Assembly: GCA_963848085.1 (NCBI GenBank)
Contig: CAWKCE010000005.1
Location: forward strand, 146,282 to 210,281
Direction: 5' to 3'
Source: an uncultured Actinomycetota bacterium
Lineage (GTDB): Bacteria > Actinomycetota > Actinomycetes > JAHEKZ01
DNA: 64,000 nt
Of the stretch, positions 3,219 through 63,190 are shown one piece after another (the stretch's first letter is position 1; each line of letters starts with the position of its first letter). The position numbers and the translations under genes are program-made. Under the pieces are notes generated by a model that was given only the letters and a program-made list of their open reading frames with translations, did not search any database and was not told the origin of the DNA.

Positions 3219-3389
3219 GGTTCCTCTCGCACTCCTGCCGGAGTGTCGTGTCGTCGGGTGATCCGGTCCGGCCCTACCGCCGTCGAGCCACCCTGAGCCC
3301 ACGAGGGGCCAGCCGCAGGGCGTGCCGAGACGACGGCGTCGAGCCGACGCGGCAGTCTACGGGAGACAGCCGGGGGAAGGCCAATCCGC

Positions 3390-3512
3390 CGAGTGCCCAC
3401 CCCCAGGACCCCCCAGCACGCCGAGTGCACGCCCGCGCGGCCCCGCCACGACTTTCGGCTCCGGCCGTGCGCACTCGACGGGGCTGGGTGTCCGCGGACT
3501 GTGCACTCGGCG
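3390..3512. repeat. cluster of GCCGAGTGC / GTGCGCACTCGACGGGGCTGGGTGTCC palindromic motifs (REP-like) downstream of TauE-like gene
   Basis: Repeated GCCGAGTGC decamers at ~3393 and ~3428; near-copy of the 32-bp unit found at 4519-4605 occurs at 3466-3493. Confidence 0.5.
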
Positions 3513-4415
3513 TCAGGGGGTCGGGGCCGGGACGGGGGCGGCTGGCGCCTCGGCGCGCTCGCGGCGCTCGCGCCCACGGGCACGGCGGGCCACAACGGCG
3601 GTCCCGGTCACCATCGCCGCAAACCCCGCCCAGCCCAGTCCGGTCGGCACCTGGGTCACCGCCTGCAGGATCACCATCCCGTTGACTAGGAGGATCAGCC
3701 CGCCGACCATCGTGCCCATGGGGGCCTGGGGAAGCCGGCCGGCCAGCCGGGCAGCGATCGGGGCCACCACCATCCCTCCGGCAACCAGACCGAGGACCGG
3801 TACCCAAGGGATGTCCTCGTGCGCGGCGCCGGTGATGAAGCCGAGCGAGGCGGCGGCCGCGACGATGAACTCCGCAGCGTTGACCGAACCGACGACGCGG
3901 CGCGGCTCGTGCCGGGTCACGGTGAGCATCGACGGGGTGACCACCGGACCCCAGCCCCCGCCGCCGGTCGCGTCGACGAAGCCACCGAGGCCACCGATCG
4001 GGACCAGCCACCGCGCCGTGTGCCCGTGCCTGGGCATGGGAATCAGCCGGACCCCAAAGCCGAAGCGGGCGAAGATCACCAGCCCGAAGAAGAACAGCAG
4101 GCCCGCCATCCAGGCCTTGGCCGAGGCCAGGCTGAGCTCGGTGAGCACCACCGCGCCGACGAAGGCGCCGATCGCGCCGGGAAGCGCCAGCCGCCGGACG
4201 ACCGCCCAGTCGACGTTGCCGTGCCGCCAGTGCGCCAGGCCGCTCACCAGGGTCGTGGGGAGCTTGGCGACGTGGGTAGCGGCCGAAGCCGCCACGGGAG
4301 ACACGCCGAAGGCCAGCAGCAGCGTGGCCGACGTGACGCCGAAGCCCATCCCGAGCGTGCCGTCCACCAGCTGCGCGGCACCACCGGCAAGCGCAAAGGC
4401 GAGAAACCACGCCAT
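3513..4415 (-). CDS. TauE/SafE (DUF81) family sulfite/sulfonate exporter-like membrane protein
   Basis: Multi-TM Gly/Ala-rich protein typical of TauE/SafE; ATG at MAWFLAF preceded by GGAAAGAGGA SD. Confidence 0.8.
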   Translation of the reverse strand: MAWFLAFALAGGAAQLVDGTLGMGFGVTSATLLLAFGVSPVAASAATHVAKLPTTLVSGLAHWRHGNVDWAVVRRLALPGAIGAFVGAVVLTELSLASAKAWMAGLLFFFGLVIFARFGFGVRLIPMPRHGHTARWLVPIGGLGGFVDATGGGGWGPVVTPSMLTVTRHEPRRVVGSVNAAEFIVAAAASLGFITGAAHEDIPWVPVLGLVAGGMVVAPIAARLAGRLPQAPMGTMVGGLILLVNGMVILQAVTQVPTGLGWAGFAAMVTGTAVVARRARGRERRERAEAPAAPVPAPTP

Positions 4416-4518
4416 ATTGTCCTCTTTCCCCATCGACTTAGAAGGAAAAATATCAGCGCTACTGCGGTATTGCAATTTCCGAATCTGAATTCAGTCTTCT
4501 GTGCCGACCACGCCGGCG
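4416..4518 (-). promoter_or_regulatory. unusually AT-rich promoter/5'UTR stretch upstream of TauE-like gene
   Basis: Local AT-rich island in a high-GC genome (ttgcaataccgcagtagcgctgatatttttcc); strong SD before ATG. Confidence 0.4.
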
Positions 4519-4605
4519 GACTGCGCACTCGACGGGGCTGGGTGTCCCCCGAGTGCGCACTCGACGGGGCTGGGTGTCCCCCGAGTGCGCACTCGACGGG
4601 CTAGC
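4519..4605. repeat. 2.5 tandem copies of a 32-bp unit containing the 14-bp perfect palindrome CGAGTGCGCACTCG
   Basis: gagtgcgcactcgacggggctgggtgtccccc repeated directly; sits between map stop and TauE promoter. Confidence 0.7.
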
Positions 4606-12502: not shown

Positions 12503-13447
12503 TCAGACCTCCGTCTCGGTCGCGTCGGTCGCCGGAGCCGCCTCAACGACCGGAGCCGCCTCAACAACGGGAGCCGCCTCAACGACCGGAGCCGCCTCAA
12601 CGACCGGAGCCGCCTCAGCAACGGGAGCCGCCTCAACGGGAGCCGCCTCAACGACCGGAGCCGCCTCGACGACCGGAGCCGCCTCGACCACCGACGTGGG
12701 CTCGGTCGTGGCGACCGGACCGGACGCCGGAGCGTCCTCCCTCGCCTTGCGCACCGGCCGGGCCGGCCGGTTCCGCTGCGAGATTCGGGCGGCAGCCGCG
12801 GCCGCCTCCCGCTCGGTGCGACTCCCGGTCACGTCACCCTTGTAGATCCACACCTTCACACCGATGCGGCCGAACGTGGTCCTGGCCTCGTAGAAGCCGT
12901 AGTCGATGTCGGCACGCAGCGTGTGCAGGGGAACCCGGCCCTCGCGGTAGAACTCGGTGCGAGACATCTCGGCGCCGCCCAGCCGCCCACCGACCTGGAC
13001 GCGGATGCCTTTGGCCCCGGCCTTCATGGCCGACTGCATGGCCTTGCGCATCGCGCGTCGGAAGGAGACCCGGCTGCTCAGCTGCTCGGCAACTCCCTGC
13101 GCGACCAGCTGAGCGTCGATCTCCGGGTTCTTCACCTCGAGGATGTTCAGCTGGACCTGCTTGCCGGTCAGCTGCTCGAGGTCTCCACGGATCCGGTCGG
13201 CCTCAGCGCCGCGACGCCCGATGACGATGCCCGGGCGAGCCGTGTGGATGTCGACCCGGACCCGGTCGCGGGTGCGCTCGATGTCGACGCGGCTGATGCC
13301 GGCCCGCTCCATGCCCTTGCTGAGCATGCGTCGGATCTCGACGTCTTCCTTGATGTAGTCCTTGTACAGCTTGTCGGCGTACCACCGGCTCGTGTACTCG
13401 GTGGTGATGCCCAGCCGAAACCCGTGCGGGTTGACCTTCTGACCCAC
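12503..13447 (-). CDS. rpsC: 30S ribosomal protein S3 with ~60-aa Ala/Pro/Val/Glu repeat C-terminal extension
   Basis: S3 core [14 protein letters not shown]...; C-terminus (EAAPVV)n encoded by 18-nt tandem repeats. Confidence 0.93.
12532..12692 (-). repeat. ~8 tandem 18-nt repeats inside rpsC 3' end (gcctcaacgaccggagcc units)
   Basis: Direct visual tandem repetition; in-frame EAAPVV peptide repeats. Confidence 0.8.
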
Positions 13448-34391: not shown

Positions 34392-35609
34392 ATGCCAGAC
34401 ATGTCATCGCCCCCCAGCCTGTCCGCCCGCGTCGCCGGGATCGCCGAGTCCGCCACCCTGGCGGTCGACGCCAAGGCCAAGGCGCTGCAGGCCGCCGGGC
34501 GCCCGGTCATCGGCTTCGGCGCCGGCGAGCCCGACTTCCCGACCCCGGGGTACATCGTGGAGGCCGCCGCGGCCGCTGCCCACGACCCCCGCTGGCACCG
34601 CTACACACCCGCCGCGGGGATCCCGGCGCTTCGGGAGGCGATTGCGGCCAAGACGCTGCGCGACTCCGGGCTGGCCGTCGGCGCCGACCAGGTCCTGGTC
34701 ACCAACGGCGGCAAACACGCCATCTTCAACGCCGTCGCCGCACTGGTGGACCCCGGCGACGAGGTCATCATCCAGGCGCCGTACTGGGTCACCTACCCGG
34801 AGGTGGTCCGGATCTTCGGCGGGGTGCCGGTGCCCGTGGTCACCGACGAGTCCAGTGGGTACCTCGCGACCGTCGAGCAGCTCGAGGCCGCCCGGACACC
34901 GCGCACCACGATGCTGATCTTCGTCTCACCGTCGAACCCGACGGGGGCCGTCTACCCGCCGGACCAGGTCGCCGCCATCGGGCGCTGGGCCGCGGAGCAC
35001 GGGCTGTGGGTTCTCACCGACGAGATCTACGAGCACCTCGTCTACGGGGAAGCTCAGTTCTCGTCACTCCCGGTTCTGGTGCCGGAGGCCGCCGAGCGGT
35101 GCATCGTGGTGAACGGCGTGGCCAAGACGTTCGCCATGACCGGCTGGCGGGTCGGTTGGATGATCGGCCCCAAGGCCGTGGTCAAGGGTGCCGCCAACCT
35201 GCAGTCCCACGCCACGTCGAACGTGAGCAACGTCTCCCAGGTGGCAGCGCTGACCGCGGTGACCGGCTCGTTGGACGCGGTGGCTGACATGCGGGTGGCG
35301 TTCGACCGGCGCCGACGGGCCATCGTGGCCATGCTGAACGCCATCGACGGTGTGACGTGCCCGGAGCCACAAGGGGCCTTCTACGCCTACCCGTCGGTGA
35401 AGGGGGTCCTCGGGCGCACCATCCGGGGCCGCACGCCTACGTCGTCGGCCGAGCTCGCCGACCTCGTGCTGGACGAGGCCGAGGTGGCAGTGGTCCCCGG
35501 TGAGGCCTTCGGCACGCCCGGCTACCTGCGGATGTCGTACGCGCTGGGCGACGACGACATCGCCGAGGGCGTCGGCCGCCTCGCGGCGCTCCTCGCCGAG
35601 TCCACCTGA
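34392..35609 (+). CDS. pyridoxal-phosphate-dependent aminotransferase, class I (aspartate aminotransferase-like); alternative ATG at 34401
   Basis: [35 protein letters not shown] motifs. Confidence 0.9.
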
Positions 35610-35616
35610 CCCCTAC

Positions 35617-35710
35617 CGCCGAGTGCGCACTCGCCGGACACCTTTCGTCGCCGAGTGTGCACCCGCAGGACACCTTTCGTCGCCGAGTGCACCGTGGCAG
35701 AGTGCGACCC
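35617..35710. repeat. three copies of a CGCCGAGTG(C/T)GCAC motif including the perfect palindrome CGAGTGCGCACTCG and direct repeat GGACACCTTTCGTCGCCGAGTG x2
   Basis: Seen directly in the convergent intergenic region between the aminotransferase and dsrE-like gene; same palindrome as at 4519-4605. Confidence 0.65.
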
Positions 35711-35798
35711 CGGTCGCAGGGCTCCCCCACGGAGGGCGACCGGGGCCGCGGCCCGCCCACCGGCTGCCAGTCGTCAGCCGCTGGACGGAGCTTGCGGG

Positions 35799-36329
35799 CT
35801 AGATGAACAGCAGCTGGGCGCCGTCGGTCATCTCGATGAAGTCCGAGGCGTTGATGATCGCCTCGACTCCGTCGTAGAGGTCCTCCTCGGTCAGCTTGTT
35901 CATGTCCGCGGACATCCGGCAGGCCCACAGGTGGCCGCCGGACGCCACGATCTGCTCGAGGAAGTCAGGAACCTCGGGAATCCCGAGGTCGACGAGCTGC
36001 TGCTTCATCATCTTGGTCGCCATGGCCTGCATGCCGGGGACGGGCGCGAGCGCCTGCGGCACCCGGACATCACCGATGGGCATGTGCATGGCGGTGTTGC
36101 CGACCGGGCTGAACTTCAGGTCGTGCATCCGGGACTTGGTGATCATGTCGAAGCCCCAGAACGTGAAGAACAGGTGCGTCTCAATGCCCTCGCCGAGAGC
36201 GGCGTTGCCCAGCACGAGTGCCGGGTAGGCCATGTCGAGGTTGCCCTTGCTGCAGATGATGGCGAGCTTGCGGTCGGTCTCCTCGTCGTCAAACGAGGGG
36301 ATCAGGGGGGTGTCGGTCTGCGTGGTCAT
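35799..36329 (-). CDS. DsrE/DsrF-like sulfur-relay family protein
   Basis: Small protein matching the DsrE/DsrF fold family; clustered with tusE/dsrC-like, DUF1641 and sqr. Confidence 0.65.
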   Translation of the reverse strand: MTTQTDTPLIPSFDDEETDRKLAIICSKGNLDMAYPALVLGNAALGEGIETHLFFTFWGFDMITKSRMHDLKFSPVGNTAMHMPIGDVRVPQALAPVPGMQAMATKMMKQQLVDLGIPEVPDFLEQIVASGGHLWACRMSADMNKLTEEDLYDGVEAIINASDFIEMTDGAQLLFI

Positions 36330-36357
36330 CGTGTCTTCTCCTCAGGATTGGTCGCGC

Positions 36358-36672
36358 TCACACGCAGCCGTGGGGCTTCGGGACACCCGCGATGTACGAC
36401 ATCTTCTTTGCGGGCTTCTTGGGGAACAGGGTGAACAGCTTCTTGGTGTCGACCCCGCCGGCGGTAGAGACCCGGCGAATGGTGGGCGTCTCGCCCTGCG
36501 CCTGGTAGTCCTCCCGGACGAACTTGATGACCTTCCAGTGGTCATCGGTCAGGTCGATGGCGATGTTTGCGGCGAGGACCTTCGCCAGGTCCTCATCCCA
36601 CTCGGCGTACTCGGTCATGAAGCCCTCGTCGTCGACGTGGATGTCGCGGCCGTTGATCGTGGTGACTGGCAT
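36358..36672 (-). CDS. TusE/DsrC-family sulfur-transfer protein (true start internal to 306-aa ORF)
   Basis: C-terminus ...YIAGVPKPHGCV matches the DsrC/TusE conserved C-terminal Cys motif; 104 aa. Confidence 0.7.
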   Translation of the reverse strand: MPVTTINGRDIHVDDEGFMTEYAEWDEDLAKVLAANIAIDLTDDHWKVIKFVREDYQAQGETPTIRRVSTAGGVDTKKLFTLFPKKPAKKMSYIAGVPKPHGCV

Positions 36673-36677
36673 CGTGC

Positions 36678-37388
36678 TTACCTTCCTTCGTGGGGTGAGT
36701 GCGAGTCGGCAGGCTTGTCCTCGCCGACCGAGCGAAGCATGGTCAGTGCGCGGCCGAGGCCGCGGCGGGTCTGCGGGTCGCGCATCTGCTTGAACAGCGC
36801 CAGCAGCGACGGCGGTTCGACGTGTTCGTCCTCGACCTCCTGCACGGTGACGGCGGTGCGCTGCAGGAGAGTCATGACCTCCGGCTGCGTCATCTCTTTG
36901 ACCGTGTTGAGGATCAAGACGACGTTGTCGCCGAGCGCCTCGACGTCCTCCTCCGTGAACGACGTCACGACGCGGTCGACAATCCCGGCGCCGCTGCGGG
37001 CGAACGCGAAGTAGCCCTTGTCGTCGAAGTCCTGGAGCGTGGCGGTGAGCGTGGCCATGGCCGGCGTCGCCAGCGGGATGACCTCGCTGCTCAGGTCGCT
37101 GAGCGACTGGAGCTGGGCGAGAAGGGCTTCCATCGTCGGGAGGGCACGCGCCATCGTGCGTCCGAAGCGGGCCAGGTCCTCGACGGTGACGTCGTCGCTG
37201 AGGTCCTCGAGCTCGCGGCTCACCGCAGCGAACGCCTCCGACGTGACCGGAGCCATGTCCTGCACGAGCTCCCCCCACCGCTCGCGCTGCTCGCGCTCGC
37301 GACGAAGCTCGTCCGCCATGACCTGAATCTGGGCGGTGAGGATGTCGAGCCGCTCGTCGGTCGTCACCGAAGTCGTGACGGTGGTCAT
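36678..37388 (-). CDS. DUF1641 domain protein (commonly paired with sulfide:quinone oxidoreductase)
   Basis: Glu/Leu-rich alpha-helical protein; gene context with sqr. Confidence 0.6.
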   Translation of the reverse strand: MTTVTTSVTTDERLDILTAQIQVMADELRREREQRERWGELVQDMAPVTSEAFAAVSRELEDLSDDVTVEDLARFGRTMARALPTMEALLAQLQSLSDLSSEVIPLATPAMATLTATLQDFDDKGYFAFARSGAGIVDRVVTSFTEEDVEALGDNVVLILNTVKEMTQPEVMTLLQRTAVTVQEVEDEHVEPPSLLALFKQMRDPQTRRGLGRALTMLRSVGEDKPADSHSPHEGR

Positions 37389-38632
37389 GACTCCGTGTCC
37401 TCGGGAATCTCTTTGCCGGCCATGGACATCAGGGCCGGAAGCGGAAGCTCCTTGCCCGGGAGCAGCACGTTCCAGTAGATCCAGCGGAACATGAGCTTGC
37501 CCCAGTGGTTGAGCTCGGTCTCCTTGAGCAGGCTGAATGGACCGATGCCCGGGAGCGGGTACTTGCCAGGCATGGGCTCGGTGTCGTAGTTGAAGTCGAT
37601 GAGCATGCCCTTGCCGTCGCCAGACTCGATGAAGCAGTTGGCGTGGCCGTCGAACCTCTGATCCATCGCCAGTCCGTCGATGTGACGCACGAAGTTGTGG
37701 GCGAAGATGTCGACGGCGAAGTGGGCGACCGAACCCGCCTTGGAGGCCGGGATGTTCGACGCGTCCCCGATGGCGAAGATGTTGTCGTGCTGGGTCGACA
37801 GGAAGGTCTCCTTGTCCACCTTGACGTAGTTGAGATCGTCGCCCAGGCCGGACCGGGCGACGAAGTCGGCGCCCATGTTGAGCGGGATGGTCACCAGGAG
37901 GTCGAACGGGACCTCGCGCTCGTCGTATGAGACGACGGTCTTCGCCTCAGGGTCGATGCGCTCAACCATGAAGTCGGACTCGAGCTCGACCTTGCGCTCA
38001 TCGAGCATCCCGCCGAGGTACCGGGACGCGATCGGCTTGGTGAACGCACCCGGGAGGGGGGTGACGTACACGATCTCCACCTGGTCGCGGATCCCGTGCT
38101 CACGGAAGAAGGAGTCGGCGAGGAACGTGAACTCCAGCGGAGCTACCGGGCACTTGATGGGCATGTCGACGATGTGGACGACCAGCCGGCCGCCCTCCCA
38201 CGTCTTCAGCTTCTCGCCGAGCGCGGTGGCACCCTCGAACGTGTAGAACTCGTGGATGCTCTTGCCCCACTCGCCCTCGTCCATGCCAGGAGTCTCGGCC
38301 GGCCGCGGCGTGGTCCCGCTGGCGATCACCAGCTGGTCATACAAGAGCTCTGTGCCGTCGGCCAGGACGACCTTGTTCTCGTCAGCGACGACACGGTCGA
38401 TCTCGCCGTGCAGGAGGTCGACGCCCTCGGGGATGAACCGCTTGGTGGGCTTGACCACCTCATCCGGCCGGTAGGCGCCGAACGGGATGAACAGATAGCC
38501 CGGCTGGTAGTAGTGGACGTCGCGCTGGTCGACCACGGTGATCTGCCACTCGTCGCGTGGCAGCCGGGGACGCAGCTTGTTGACGACCATGGTGCCGGCG
38601 GTTCCGCCGCCGAGTACGAGCAGGCGCTTCAT
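37385..38632 (-). CDS. sqr: sulfide:quinone oxidoreductase / FAD-dependent pyridine nucleotide-disulfide oxidoreductase
   Basis: MKRLLVLGGGTAGTMVVNKL Rossmann motif and SQR-like sequence; true start is Met71 of the ORF-track entry. Confidence 0.8.
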   Translation of the reverse strand: MKRLLVLGGGTAGTMVVNKLRPRLPRDEWQITVVDQRDVHYYQPGYLFIPFGAYRPDEVVKPTKRFIPEGVDLLHGEIDRVVADENKVVLADGTELLYDQLVIASGTTPRPAETPGMDEGEWGKSIHEFYTFEGATALGEKLKTWEGGRLVVHIVDMPIKCPVAPLEFTFLADSFFREHGIRDQVEIVYVTPLPGAFTKPIASRYLGGMLDERKVELESDFMVERIDPEAKTVVSYDEREVPFDLLVTIPLNMGADFVARSGLGDDLNYVKVDKETFLSTQHDNIFAIGDASNIPASKAGSVAHFAVDIFAHNFVRHIDGLAMDQRFDGHANCFIESGDGKGMLIDFNYDTEPMPGKYPLPGIGPFSLLKETELNHWGKLMFRWIYWNVLLPGKELPLPALMSMAGKEIPEDTES

Positions 38633-38811
38633 GCAGCCCTCCCAGTCGCTGTGCTCCCACCAGGACCGGAATCCGTGGGGGATGTCCTGGGGACCACAGT
38701 AGGTGCTCCACCGTATACCCCCCAGGGCATCTGGTCCTCGCTCCCCCGGGCCTTTGGTCCCCTCTCCGGTCCGGCGCCCCCCGGCGCGCCCGCCTGGCAA
38801 GATCTCCAGCC

Positions 38812-39855
38812 GTGACGCCCACCGGTCGGGACCTTCAGACACTGCCCAAGTCCCACCTGCACCTGCACTTCACCGGCGCCATGCGTCACCGCACGCTGAT
38901 TGAGCTGGCGCAGGCGCACGGTGTCCACCTTCCGGAGCCGCTCCGGTTGGAGCGGCTCCCACACCTTCACGCCACCGACGAGCGCGGCTGGTTCCGATTC
39001 CAGCGGCTGTACGACGTCGCCAGGTCCGTGCTGCGGGAGCCGGCTGACCTGCGTCGGCTGGTCCACGAGGTGGCTGAGGACGAGGTGGCCGACGGGTCGC
39101 GCTGGCTCGAGATCCAGATCGACCCCTCTGGTTACGCCGCCCAGTTCGACGGGCTGACGGCGACCCTGGAGATCGTGCTGGACGCCGCGCGAACGGCCAG
39201 TCTGGCCTCCGGCGTCGGTATCGGGGTGATCGTCGGGGCCAACCGGACGCGTCACCCGTTGGACGCCCGGACGCTCGCCCGGCTGGCCGCCCGATACGTG
39301 GACGACGGCGTCGTCGGCTTCGGCCTGGCCAACGACGAGCGGCACGGCCCCCCCGAGGACTTCGCCCGGGCCTTCCGGATCGCCCGCGAGGCCGGCCTGG
39401 CCTCCGTACCGCACGCCGGCGAGCTCGCCGGCGCCCCCAGCGTGCGCTCCGCCTTGGCGTCGCTGGCCGCGACGCGCATTGGACACGGCGTCCGCAGCGT
39501 CGAGGACCCGGAGGTCGTCGCGGAGCTGGCGTCGCACGGCGTGACGCTGGAGGTGTGCCCGGGGTCGAACATCGGGATGGGCGTCTACGAGCAGGCGGCG
39601 GACGTACCGCTCCGTCAGCTGTTCGACGCGGGGGTGCCGATCGCCTTGGGCGCGGACGACCCGCTGCTGTTCGGCTCCCGACTCGTCGACCAGTACCGCG
39701 TGGCGCGAGACGTGCACGGCTTCGACGACGCCGAGCTGGCCGAGCTGGCGCGGATGTCGGTCCGTGGCTCGATGGCCCCCGCCCCACTCCAAGACCAGCT
39801 TCTCGCCGACATCGACGCCTGGCTCACCACCCCCGCCGCCCCCACCACCCCTTAG
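38812..39855 (+). CDS. add: adenosine deaminase
   Basis: PKSHLHLHFTGAM matches the PKxELHxHLDG signature; metal-binding His/Asp later. Confidence 0.85.
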   Translation: MTPTGRDLQTLPKSHLHLHFTGAMRHRTLIELAQAHGVHLPEPLRLERLPHLHATDERGWFRFQRLYDVARSVLREPADLRRLVHEVAEDEVADGSRWLEIQIDPSGYAAQFDGLTATLEIVLDAARTASLASGVGIGVIVGANRTRHPLDARTLARLAARYVDDGVVGFGLANDERHGPPEDFARAFRIAREAGLASVPHAGELAGAPSVRSALASLAATRIGHGVRSVEDPEVVAELASHGVTLEVCPGSNIGMGVYEQAADVPLRQLFDAGVPIALGADDPLLFGSRLVDQYRVARDVHGFDDAELAELARMSVRGSMAPAPLQDQLLADIDAWLTTPAAPTTP

Positions 39856-39980
39856 GCGCATTGACGCACTGCACCGCCTCTAGCGGCGAAACAACGCACA
39901 CTGCGGCACGCCTCCCCCGGCGCTGATCGTCATCGTGCGGGGAAACGCCGCTAGGTCCGGGGCAGTGCGTCAATGTGCCG
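39855..39980. ncRNA. candidate structured element: nested inverted repeats (outer 16 bp GCATTGACGCACTGC/GCAGTGCGTCAATG, inner 9 bp CTAGCGGCG/CGCCGCTAG) around a ~55-nt loop
   Basis: Seen directly in the add-murB convergent spacer; no known family assigned. Confidence 0.3.
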
Positions 39981-40016
39981 GGGAGGGGGTGGTGAGGCTC
40001 GGCGCCGGGGAGGGCG

Positions 40017-40087
40017 GTCAGAGCTGGGAGGGGGTGGGGGTCAGAGCTGGGAGGGGGTGGGGGTCAGAGCGGGGGGAGGAGGGTGGG
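40017..40087. repeat. G-rich tandem repeat (23-mer GTCAGAGCTGGGAGGGGGTGGGG x ~2.5) with G-quadruplex potential
   Basis: Direct tandem repetition; GGGG tracts on + strand; overlaps murB stop region. Confidence 0.6.
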
Positions 40088-48159: not shown

Positions 48160-48385
48160 CTGCTATCCCCGGATGTCTGCACGTGGCTCAGGACAGACAT
48201 GCAGCGCCGCAGCCCGGCGCTGTCGGGCATTGACTGGGGCGCTCGATAACCCGGGACGATCACGAGCCTCCGTCGGCCGGCCGCCGCTGGCGAGACAGGT
48301 GAGGAGCGTGGGGTTACCCGCCCCGGTGCACCGCCCAGCGCTGTGTGAGGGCGAGGCGCACATAACGGCACCTCGGTTCGCTCGG
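48160..48385 (+). repeat. degenerate/composite copy of the 48-64 kb repeat family (conserved boxes GGATGTCT..., GTGGGGTT..., GCGCACATAACGGCACCTCGGTTCG; 5' module rearranged)
   Basis: Alignment by eye to copies at 50066, 52621 etc. Confidence 0.6.
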
Positions 48386-50057: not shown

Positions 50058-50065
50058 GCGATTCA

Positions 50066-50197
50066 GAATGCCGGATATCGCGCGGATCCGGGACCGGAGC
50101 CAGGGGGTGTCTTAACGATGTGTGGGGTTGCCGGCCTGCGTGCACCGCCCAGACGCTGTGTGAGGGCGAGGCGCACATAGCGGCACTTCGGTTCGGT
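50066..50197 (+). repeat. repeat family copy 1 (reference copy): 5' hairpin CCGGAT-N7-ATCCGG, box GAGCCAGGGGGTGTCTTAACGATGTGTGGGGTT, GC-rich variable centre, 3' box GCGCACATAGCGGCACTTCGGTTCGG
   Basis: Seen directly; non-coding (reading frames not conserved between copies). Confidence 0.85.
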
Positions 50198-50280
50198 CGA
50201 CCGCCGGCTCGTCAGAGGAAATGATCTCCGTTAATGGACACTCACGTCGTAGCAGTTCTGGGGAGGCCCGCTGGTCGGAG

Positions 50281-52306: not shown

Positions 52307-52620
52307 TGAAGCGCTGAGCCGGAACGTATGACGGCTCCAGCCGAGCGGGGGGAGAGTCCTACCGGTACTACTCGGGTAGCCGGATGACGGAGTGTCAGCA
52401 TGTCGGCCGCGTGGCCGACGAGTTCTCGACGGCCACGCCAAGTCTGACGGCATCGAGCCGCAGTCGCGCTGGCCCCTGCTGGCCGGCCACTGCGGCCAGG
52501 GGCGCTGACCGGCTGCCTAACCGCAGAGACATCACAGAGCGGGACGCAGCTACCGACCGTCTTGGTGCCGCTCACCTGGTGCTCCGACTGCTCCGCCCGC
52601 GTCGGTGCAGTTGAGCAGCC

Positions 52621-52766
52621 TAATGCCGGATCTTGGGCGGATCCGGGACGACGAGCCAGGGGATGTCTTCACGATGTGTGGCGTTACCCGCCCCGGTGCA
52701 CCGCCTCGGGGCATCGCCCAGGCGCTCCGCGAAGGCGCGGGGCATAACGGCACATCTGCGCGTCGC
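52621..52766 (+). repeat. repeat family copy 2 (longer variable centre)
   Basis: taatgCCGGATcttgggcGGATCCGGGAC...GAGCCAGGGGATGTCTTCACGATGTGTGGCGTT...GGCATAACGGCACATCTGCG. Confidence 0.85.
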
Positions 52767-54357: not shown

Positions 54358-54540
54358 CCACAGGCTGGAGCGGAGCCCGGCCCGGGCCCGGAGCGAGCGA
54401 GCCACGGACCGGACCCGCGCACGGCCTGTAGACCCAACGGCCCATGCCTTGCCGTCCCCCTTGTCGGCGTAGGTTGCGGTGGCCAGTCGGTCGGCGAAGC
54501 GGTGCCCAGTCACGCGCACACTTTGCCAGTGCCAGCCGCG

Positions 54541-54677
54541 CATACTGCCGGATATTGCGAGCAAACGGGACGGGGGCCCAGGGGGTGTCTTAATGATGTG
54601 TGGGGTTCGCCGCCCCGGTGGCCCCGCCCCCAAGCTCCGTGTGGTAGGAGCGCACATAACGGCACCTCTGTTCGGGC
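54541..54677 (+). repeat. repeat family copy 3
   Basis: catactgCCGGATattgcgag...CCCAGGGGGTGTCTTAATGATGTGTGGGGTT...GCGCACATAACGGCACCTCTGTTCGGG. Confidence 0.85.
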
Positions 54678-54771
54678 TCGGACTGAAGAGACGACCTGAT
54701 CCTGGCGGCACCCAGCGGTGGGTCCGCCCTGCTAGAGGGCCGGTCCCTCGGCGCTCGTTCATGCATGACTG

Positions 54772-57591: not shown

Positions 57592-57709
57592 ACGAGCCCG
57601 CTGATCCTGACAAGGACGTCTATCCTTCCAACGCCGGGCGCTAACTCCCCGCGACGGTCAGTGGGCGCCGATCCCGAGCGGGCCGCCAGTGTGACGGATC
57701 AATGAGCGC

Positions 57710-57843
57710 GAATGCCGGATATTTGGCGGCCCCGGGACCACGAGCCAGGGGATGCCTTAACGATGTGTGGGTTTGCCGGCCCAGGCGCCCCGCCCAGGCG
57801 CTCCGCGAGGGCGGGGCGCCGACAACGACACGTCGGTTCGGGT
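57710..57843 (+). repeat. repeat family copy 4
   Basis: GAATGCCGGATatttggcGGCCCCGGGACcacGAGCCAGGGGATGCCTTAACGATGTGTGGGTTT...CGGTTCGGG. Confidence 0.85.
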
Positions 57844-58381
57844 TGGGCCTGCCGTGACACCCGGTTTCAGCTCGGGCCGTGCCACCGGACTTCAGCCACT
57901 TCCGACCGGGACGCTCTTGAGACCAGCGGACCGGACGACTGGTGTATGCCCAGGTCGTCGGCGGTGACCCGTCACCCAAGGGCGCCGAGCAGACCGAGTC
58001 GGCAAGCCCCGGTGCTCCTCATGCCGACATTCGCCCGAGGCTGACCTTGCGTACAACAGGTCAGTCGGCCGCAAGGCGCCAGGGTTCGCCCGCCGACGCT
58101 CATCGTCCGCCAGGCGCTTCGTCGCGACCGGGTCAACGACGCTAGGACCGGCGAAACGGTCATACAACGAGCGACGGCCACCAAACAGGCACAGGCGCCA
58201 TCCCAAGGCCTCCCCCGCAACCCCACACCAGTTGGTCCTTCTCGGCTTCCCGCCTCCGGGGCATTCCCTCTGGACACCCGAGACGCTAGACAGCCTGACC
58301 CGGCGCTATCCGGCTCTCGACATCGAGCCGTGGCTGGCCGCTGCGCCCTTGGACTGATCACGGCCACGCACTGAGGGCGAG

Positions 58382-60025: not shown

Positions 60026-60182
60026 GTTCGGGGACCCTAACTGTGATTCAGCCGAAGCGGGGCTGGGTGCGCCGCGGGGCCCTGACTGCGCGTCAGCTGC
60101 GCTTTGCGTCGATCGCTCGGTCGACGATGTTCCCTCCGGAATATCGCCACGTCCAAATCCCGCCCGACCACCGGCGATGCCT

Positions 60183-60295
60183 CATGCCGGATACTGCGCG
60201 GATCCGGGACCGGGCCAGGGGATGTCTTGACGATGTGTGGGGTTAGCCGCCCCGATGCTCTGTGAGGGGGCGCACATATCGGCACTTCAGCGCAG
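60183..60295 (+). repeat. repeat family copy 5 (shortest)
   Basis: catgCCGGATactgcgcGGATCCGGGACcGGGCCAGGGGATGTCTTGACGATGTGTGGGGTT...GCGCACATATCGGCACTTCAGCG. Confidence 0.85.
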
Positions 60296-61872: not shown

Positions 61873-61993
61873 GAATGCCGGATGCCGGGCTGTTCCGGGG
61901 AGAAGCGAGTCAGGGGACGGATGGGCGATGTGTGGGGTCGCCCGCCAGGTGCTCTACGAGGCCGGCGAGGCACACATGACGGCGCATCTGCAC
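61873..61993 (+). repeat. repeat family copy 6 (more diverged)
   Basis: GAATGCCGGATgccgggctgTTCCGGGGAgaagcGAGTCAGGGGAcGGATGGGCGATGTGTGGGGTcg...GCACACATGACGGCGCATCTGC. Confidence 0.8.
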
Positions 61994-63070: not shown

Positions 63071-63190
63071 TGGAAATTGGGGACTTCCGGGACTCACGAG
63101 TCAGGAGATGTCCTCGCGACCTGTGGGGTTCCCCGCCCACCGCCCGGGCGCTCCGCGAGCTACGGGGAACACATACCCGCACATCTTGCG
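63071..63190 (+). repeat. repeat family copy 7 (5' hairpin module diverged)
   Basis: ...TTCCGGGACtcacGAGTCAGGAGATGTCctcGCGAcctGTGGGGTTcc...ACACATAcccGCACatcttgcg. Confidence 0.75.

Follow-up and report, generated by a model that had tools for sequence, protein, structure and literature searches.

The window, meaning the whole stretch of 64,000 nucleotides that was analysed, has a G+C content of 68% and contains an actinomycete block of ribosomal-protein, rpoBC and EF-Tu genes. Short repeat arrays, here called A, B and C, lie at two loci in it. At the first, the gene order on the minus strand is secY-adk-map-array B-tauE-array A-infA-rpmJ-rpsM. At the second, a plus-strand aminotransferase gene ending at 35609 is followed by array C, a G+C-rich hairpin and the 3' end of dsrE2. 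The earlier note on this DNA had named sulfur-related neighbours for the repeats, and these identities (TauE; SQR-DUF1641-DsrC-DsrE2) were confirmed by Pfam. The same TauE product was called at the tauE locus of contigs from other strains, and named TauE homologues at ~70% identity are found in Nocardioides and Aeromicrobium. The features discussed below are as follows.

3386-3512 (units 3390-3509), no strand assigned: array A, between the tauE stop (3513) and the conserved region upstream of infA
3513-4415, minus strand: tauE, a TauE/SafE-family permease of 300 aa (Pfam PF01925, E = 2e-40), flanked by arrays B and A
4500-4600, minus strand: array B, in the gap between map and tauE, starting 3 nt after the map stop
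4550-4563, no strand assigned: perfect 14-bp palindrome CGAGTGCGCACTCG, copy 1 (exact match)
4582-4595, no strand assigned: perfect 14-bp palindrome CGAGTGCGCACTCG, copy 2 (exact match)
35616-35715, plus strand: array C, between the aminotransferase stop (35609) and the hairpin after dsrE2
35620-35633, no strand assigned: perfect 14-bp palindrome CGAGTGCGCACTCG, copy 3 (exact match)
35706-35747, no strand assigned: G+C-rich hairpin (GACCCCGGTCGC...GCGACCGGGGCC) directly after dsrE2, invariant among strains
35799-38632, minus strand: sqr-DUF1641-dsrC-dsrE2 operon (Pfam, and gene calls on contigs L113 and L114), with array C downstream of its last gene
35799-36329, minus strand: dsrE2-like gene, the last of the operon (Pfam, gene calls)
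about 36358-36672, minus strand: dsrC/tusE-like gene (Pfam, gene calls)
36678-37388, minus strand: DUF1641 gene (Pfam, gene calls)
about 37385-38632, minus strand: sqr, an SQR-type flavoprotein gene (Pfam)
38714-38730, no strand assigned: palindrome TATACCCCCCAGGGCAT (minus strand ATGCCCTGGGGGGTATA) upstream of sqr, from alignment with relatives

The palindrome CGAGTGCGCACTCG matches exactly at the three sites listed, compared with a mean of 0.00 and a maximum of 0 in 100 dinucleotide-preserving shuffles. Three perfect copies had been reported before; they do exist, at positions 5-8 bp away from those given (4543, 4575 and 35625). Degenerate copies were located at 4518 and 35652 (two mismatches) and at 3390, 3422, 3464 and 3496 (three mismatches each), with a decayed copy at 35684. 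Across the window as a whole, matches with at most three mismatches show no excess over chance (15 vs 12.2 expected); of these, only the family copies keep a 32-bp register and fall into three intergenic clusters. According to gene calls and Pfam, every copy of the unit is intergenic.

In all three clusters, CGAGTGCGCACTCG does not stand alone but forms the centre of a 32-bp unit with a defined orientation, CGAGTGCGCACTCG-NN-GGACACC-N9, which is repeated head-to-tail. Tandem Repeats Finder assigned a period of 32 to two stretches: 4522-4600, with 2.5 copies and a 100% match, and 35617-35690, with 2.3 copies and a 90% match. Array B ends about 85 nt short of the tauE start codon. In minus-strand reading, it consists of two identical units (4564-4595 and 4532-4563, CGAGTGCGCACTCGGGGGACACCCAGCCCCGT) with the structure CGAGTGCGCACTCG-GG-GGACACC-CAGCCCCGT, after which comes a truncated variant (4500-4531, CGAGTGCGCAGTCCGC...). 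In array C, the plus-strand unit is CGAGTGCGCACTCG-CC-GGACACC-TTTCGTCGC with the spacer CCGGACACCTTTCGTCGC; its copies range from a perfect core (35620-35651) through one with two core mismatches (35652-35683) to a decayed one (35684-35715). Both of these arrays are purely head-to-tail. Array A contains four decayed units, two in minus orientation (3478-3509 and 3446-3477) and then two in plus orientation (3422-3453 and 3390-3421), with one inverted junction.

The relationship among the arrays extends into the spacers. Compared with the spacer of the B unit, that of unit A1 is identical at 17/18 positions and those of A4, C1 and C2 at 10/18 each, whereas random 18-mers from the window have a mean identity of 5.4 with this spacer (P(>=10) = 0.015). 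A repeat search of the window also grouped arrays A, B and C independently (families D9, D14, I1 and I3). Homology among the arrays is thus not confined to the palindrome, and the unit has an orientation. Since the spacers are related, the equal 32-bp phasing came with the unit by descent, and no explanation by helical phase is required. It was also observed that the two units nearest to tauE, B3 (4500-4531) and A1 (3478-3509), share a private variant, CGAGTGC(G/A)CAGTCCGC. The gene appears to be bracketed by a duplicated junction, which is at odds with the presence of tauE at the same place in relatives that have no arrays.

Variation within the species was assessed using 17 contigs from other samples that are 97.3-99.9% identical to the window. 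Over all strain alignments, 27/128 positions are polymorphic in array A, 7/85 in array B (part of which may be due to short-read mis-assembly of exact repeats) and 4/94 in array C, compared with 461/34703 (1.3%) in the rest of the aligned sequence and 0.8-1.6% directly beside the arrays. Among strains of 98-99.9% identity, the arrays are 3-20 times more polymorphic than their flanks (4-21% of positions vs ~1.3% elsewhere). Of the three, array A varies most, even though it is not an exact repeat. In one strain contig (L002), array B has 1.5 units instead of the 2.5 in the window, although the flanks are 99.9% identical and the TauE protein is identical; in three others (L001, L107 and L108), single-base changes in array B break a core. 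The perfect core of array C reads CGGGTGCGCACTCG in three of five strains. Within the 211-nt intergenic stretch around it, the four sites that vary are all inside the array, and the adjoining hairpin is invariant. Within the species, the arrays gain and lose units and collect substitutions far faster than the flanking DNA. In addition, short-read contigs often end at the arrays: L003 and L004 start at 4550, L005 ends at 3378, and L102 starts inside array A.

We also compared the two loci with those of relatives. In 128.7 kb from relatives carrying an orthologous tauE or sqr-dsrC-dsrE2 (L109, L117-L123, L111 and L129), no copy of the palindrome with two or fewer mismatches was found. In L109, TauE is 78% identical and the order map-(one extra gene)-tauE-infA is present, with no family copy on either side of tauE; upstream of this gene, it shares with the window only an AT-rich stretch containing TTGCAAT/TTGCATT. 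In the window, this stretch (4416-4500) is an AT-rich island between array B and the tauE start codon that holds a 10-bp perfect palindrome (CTGAATTCAG, 4485-4494), TTGCAAT (4470-4476) and an ATTC-N8-AAAT motif, the last one mismatch away from the SqrR-type site ATTC-N8-GAAT. At the second locus, L117, L119 and L122/L123 encode DsrE2 proteins with 84-87% identity and have the same gene order as the window (murB-add-sqr-dsrC-dsrE2-aminotransferase-secE), with no array after dsrE2. Because array-free relatives share this organisation, both gene sets predate the arrays. Judged against these 128.7 kb, the arrays are specific to one species-level lineage.

Two other elements near the sulfur operon are retained in relatives. 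The hairpin after dsrE2 in the window (GGCCCCGG...CCGTGGGGGAGCC...CCGGGGCC) is also present in L117 and L122. As the hairpin at 35706-35747 is invariant among strains and kept in array-free relatives, it is probably the real bidirectional terminator. The palindrome upstream of sqr (38714-38730) is conserved as ATACCCTnGGGGGTAT in L117 and L122 and is degenerate in L119. Its sequence resembles CsoR/CstR-type operators, and it is likely the true operator of the sqr-dsrC-dsrE2 operon. No CsoR-like gene was detected among the window ORFs scanned.

Taken together, we think it likely that CGAGTGCGCACTCG is the core of the 32-bp unit of a lineage-specific, dispersed, intergenic family of REP-like/MIRU-like tandem repeats, three loci of which are seen here. 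The unit length falls within the 10-100 bp of minisatellites, homologous units are arranged head-to-tail at three intergenic loci, and the number of units differs between close strains (array B in L002). A REP-like family of extragenic palindromes had been mentioned in the earlier note as the second of two possibilities; it fits the evidence and can be refined, in that the palindrome is the core of a head-to-tail minisatellite unit. The accompanying statement that the copies sit at convergent 3' ends holds for array C and fails for arrays A and B, since map, tauE and infA are co-directional on the minus strand.

The family shares several features with REP/BIME elements of the GTAG and CGTC superfamilies (PMC3733652, PMC2817692), including a short G+C-rich palindrome that is strictly extragenic and capable of forming a stem-loop. 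As with REPs, most copies here lie past the end of an ORF, the two adjoining genes being co-directional or convergent; clustered copies can fold into larger hairpins, and the family is confined to a species. CGTC abuts the core in the B units and in one A unit (CCCCGTCGAGTGC), and lies 2 nt away in the C units. In tagged REPs, an unpaired GTAG or CGTC tag is conserved at one end. However, the stem here is ~5 bp with a 4-nt loop, whereas that of CGTC families is 8-9 bp and starts with A/T pairs, and the head-to-tail arrangement at a fixed 32-bp period contrasts with tagged REPs, which form mainly head-to-head or tail-to-tail dimers and in which head-to-tail dimers are negligible (PMC3733652). 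REP families have tens to thousands of copies per genome, compared with three loci in ~74.5 kb here. The GTAG type is associated with a RAYT transposase that the repeats flank; no transposase domain, RAYT included, was found among the window ORFs scanned. The survey of CGTC repeats lists five phyla; Actinobacteria are not among them, nor mentioned there (PMC3733652).

The second likeness is to the MIRU-VNTR loci of Mycobacterium tuberculosis: tandem direct repeats of a few tens of bp, with homologous units at several intergenic or intercistronic loci and differences in unit number between close strains. MIRU units are roughly 40-100 bp long. The unit described here is shorter (32 bp), has no sequence relationship to MIRUs, has a palindromic core as its most conserved part and contains no overlapping small ORFs. 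Copy-number variation of MIRUs has been described (PMC3635867). The behaviour of the arrays fits MIRU-type minisatellites most closely, and their location and hairpin potential are REP-like.

Other known elements were considered and rejected. A CRISPR array does not apply, given that any one array has 18-nt intervals that are the same or nearly so, and a MITE does not apply, given that the three loci differ in length and architecture. No site resembling a canonical intrinsic terminator, with a G+C-rich hairpin and a U-tract, was found at any array. The consensus sequences of CIRCE, HAIR, parS and SlmA-type sites differ in half-sites or spacing.

As to how the family may have arisen, the arrays would gain and lose units through replication slippage or unequal recombination, while point mutations erode them. 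On this basis array B, whose units are 100% identical, would be young, array C intermediate and array A old, and new loci may be seeded by some form of copying, for instance gene conversion or transposase-like mobilisation. Several observations count against a dispersed family: only three loci with ~10 units are seen in ~74.5 kb of the species (the window plus L107, L124 and L125), none of 185,579 representative genomes has the 20-nt signature of the repeat more than once, and the Pfam scan detected no mobilising enzyme (transposase or integrase domain) among the window ORFs scanned. About 3.9 kb of sequence to the right of the window contains no array.

The adjacency of all three arrays to sulfur-related genes has a chance probability of ~1e-3, or ~0.02 if arrays A and B represent one event, as a rough estimate in which ~30 intergenic gaps of >=80 nt are taken as equally available. 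Arrays A and B are clearly not independent: they belong to the same subfamily, and their tauE-proximal units carry the private CAGTCCGC variant. The coincidence is further weakened by the fact that TauE is a generic permease family whose sulfur label is loose and by the fact that the association was spotted after the fact. The adjacency would then be positional and not regulatory, insertion-tolerant gaps being few in the ribosomal/rpoBC block, an explanation that is itself post hoc. Most of the other gaps in the window either are leaders of ribosomal operons under constraint or hold a second repeat family.

That second dispersed repeat is unrelated to CGAGTGCGCACTCG and comprises eight same-strand copies of ~130 nt (AATGCCGGATATTGCGCGGATCCGGGAC...GAGCCAGGGGATGTCTTAACGATGTGTGGGGTT...CGCACATAACGGCAC), at about 48282-48384, 50058-50200, 52613-52724, 54535-54680, 57702-57845, 60174-60271, 61906-61946 and 63097-63157. 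They occupy the intergenic gaps of an accessory block encoding an ECF sigma factor, glyoxalases, YCII, RibD_C, a serpin and an Arr rifampin ADP-ribosyltransferase. No Rfam family matches the element, which also lacks clear covariation and may represent a shared promoter/5'UTR or something MITE-like. Elsewhere, a near-perfect 141-nt hairpin (39850-39990; -86.4 kcal/mol, z = -6.4) lies between the convergent add and murB genes and is followed in the same gap by a 23-bp tandem repeat of 2.9 copies (40007-40074, GGGGTGGGGGTCAGAGCTGGGAG); in L117 and L122, the ends of add and murB abut without this hairpin and repeat spacer. Moreover, an 18-bp tandem repeat of ~9 copies (12504-12711) is located in a coding gene between rplV (L22) and rplP (L16), presumably as the repetitive C-terminal tail of ribosomal protein S3, and L107 aligns there with extra, offset matches, which suggests differences in copy number.

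Among the alternatives to a dispersed minisatellite, the one that fares best is that the arrays are selected RNA elements, which terminate or protect mRNA 3' ends and insulate tauE and the sulfur operon from highly expressed neighbours; we consider this unlikely. As the core is self-complementary, transcripts or single-stranded DNA across an array can form hairpins, each unit potentially contributing a 5-bp stem with a 4-nt loop in addition to long inter-unit helices. The positions of array B, 3 nt after the map stop, and of array C, after the aminotransferase stop, would suit such a role, and two sources report REPs as 3'UTR elements (PMC3733652; bioRxiv 10.64898/2026.03.23.713779). The predicted folding is divided. 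A single unit, with its 5-bp stem and 4-nt loop, folds no better than shuffles, and array C is unremarkable (z = -1.2); on the other side, the stem of the B units is extended by CCCC/GGGG to -12 kcal/mol, and both array B on its transcribed strand (-63 kcal/mol, z = -3.4) and array A, as an imperfect hairpin of ~130 nt (-88.1 kcal/mol, z = -3.5), fold better than shuffles. Consensus scans of the arrays found neither a U-tract terminator nor a sigma-70-like promoter, no Rfam family matched them at gathering or E-value thresholds, and relatives have the single conserved hairpin and no arrays. Substitutions among strains break the stems without compensation, and therefore a role at the RNA level is at best incidental. 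The hairpins may incidentally alter 3'-end stability or read-through from map into tauE.

According to the favoured proposal of the earlier note, the phased palindromes form an operator array through which a dimeric regulator (ArsR/SqrR/BigR, CsoR/CstR or TetR-like) co-regulates tauE and sqr-dsrC-dsrE2. It seems very improbable that this is so. The proposal draws on a perfect 14-bp palindrome at a 32-bp phase, about three helical turns, and on the sulfur-related genes that border all three arrays, but the arrays are largely in the wrong places. Array B does lie 103-185 nt upstream of the tauE start codon, and it is the only one upstream of a sulfur-related gene, arrays A and C being downstream of tauE and dsrE2. 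The upstream region of sqr (38633-38812) contains no copy and has a different, conserved palindrome instead. The likeness to the operators of sulfide repressors (CstR/CsoR, SqrR/BigR) consists of a perfect palindrome near sulfur-oxidation and TauE-like genes; against it stand the wrong placement of two of the three arrays and the lack of conservation of the CGAGTGCGCACTCG site, since the orthologous tauE and sqr-dsrE2 loci of relatives have no copies. Consensus sites of CsoR/CstR are of the G+C-rich ATACCC...GGGTAT type, and that of SqrR is ATTC-N8-GAAT; CGAGTGCGCACTCG is unlike either. The cores mutate freely among strains, and a whole unit is dispensable, as in L002. No regulator of the ArsR, CsoR or TetR type was found by Pfam beside either locus (flanking genes, and ORFs at 44-64 kb), none of the scanned window ORFs has an ArsR- or CsoR-family domain, and pairs of the palindrome in other actinobacterial contigs (L008 and L071) have non-sulfur neighbours. 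The shared regulon fails on position, on conservation in relatives and on constraint among strains: two of the three arrays lie downstream of the sulfur genes, orthologous promoters in relatives lack the sites, and the sites show no purifying selection within the species.

The palindrome was then sought in other lineages. A 20-nt signature of the repeat (CGAGTGCGCACTCGNNGGAC) gave 12 single matches in 185,579 representative genomes, mostly in coding DNA of unrelated taxa, and no genome in this collection of 185,579 species had multiple copies. The only related-looking match is in a Nocardioidaceae MAG (L008, 2537-2572), in which two perfect 14-mers with a period of 22 lie between convergent nitrobindin-like and peroxidase-like genes. 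A scan of metagenomes for two perfect 12-mers (GAGTGCGCACTC) 6-32 nt apart, which by design selects any tandem repeat holding this 12-mer, returned 84 loci, none of them in a sulfur context; the count covers the GAGTGCGCACTC pattern alone. In a soil contig of 74% G+C (L071, 4043-4097), two perfect copies with a period of 43 and an internal hairpin lie between convergent hexapeptide-transferase and beta-lactamase-like genes, and the tail GCACTCGGCGTGCTCGGGGGGTC closely matches GCACTCGGCGTGCTGGGGGGTC of array A. Several further metagenomic contigs have GAGTGCGCACTC arrays with periods of 21-44 bp. Viral contigs gave 0 matches, and a literature search for the palindrome sequence retrieved only unrelated primers and oligonucleotides.

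The majority of the metagenomic loci (79/84, within L018-L101; for example, L039 2894-2971 and L081 754-831) belong to an unrelated 22-bp family with a GAGTGCGCACTC core in rumen-type Bacteroidota. Exactly four units are present in 58/79 of these arrays, and conservation is far stronger in the palindrome than in the spacers, of which 162 distinct 10-nt versions occur among 323 units. The arrays are often bounded by AAAAAT/ATTTTT, adjoin a hairpin (CCCTCCACAGGTACCTGTGGAGGG) and have no match in Rfam; their neighbours are housekeeping or Bacteroidota-type genes, such as those for FtsY, a RimO-like radical-SAM enzyme, a SusC-like receptor and transporters. That GAGTGCGCACTC marks a cross-phylum class of palindrome-cored repeats, distinct from GTAG/CGTC REPs and sharing a hairpin-recognising enzyme or host factor, is a highly doubtful proposition.

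Recurrence of the 12-mer GAGTGCGCACTC in arrays of other periods in other taxa, like the spacing of the palindromes by about three helical turns, might also point to an architectural, nucleoid-associated or partition-type protein that binds the arrays and is unrelated to sulfur. We give this little credence, since the arrays are unconserved in relatives and unconstrained among strains, are seen at only three loci and have a core that does not match actinobacterial parS (GTTTCACGTGAAAC). Least probable of all is a recombination scar or attachment site at which tauE and sulfur operon cassettes integrated, leaving direct repeats at the junctions: same-orientation, same-subfamily units do bracket tauE, with CAGTCCGC shared by B3 and A1, but in array-free relatives tauE is already in the map-infA interval and the sulfur operon in the add-aminotransferase interval, only one end of the sulfur operon adjoins an array, and no integrase or transposase was found in the window.

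It is the dispersed, palindrome-cored minisatellite, then, that we favour, and what had been a tempting shared sulfur operator appears to be repeat DNA, the conserved cis-element of the operon lying elsewhere, upstream of sqr. The repeat arrays account for the breaks in short-read assemblies at these loci and represent a practical assembly hazard, and since they vary from strain to strain, they can serve as markers of the VNTR type in this uncultured lineage. Short palindromic repeats have mostly been catalogued in Proteobacteria; this family is an actinobacterial one with a head-to-tail arrangement. If the cross-phylum recurrence of GAGTGCGCACTC were to prove non-random, it would represent an unrecognised class of repeats.
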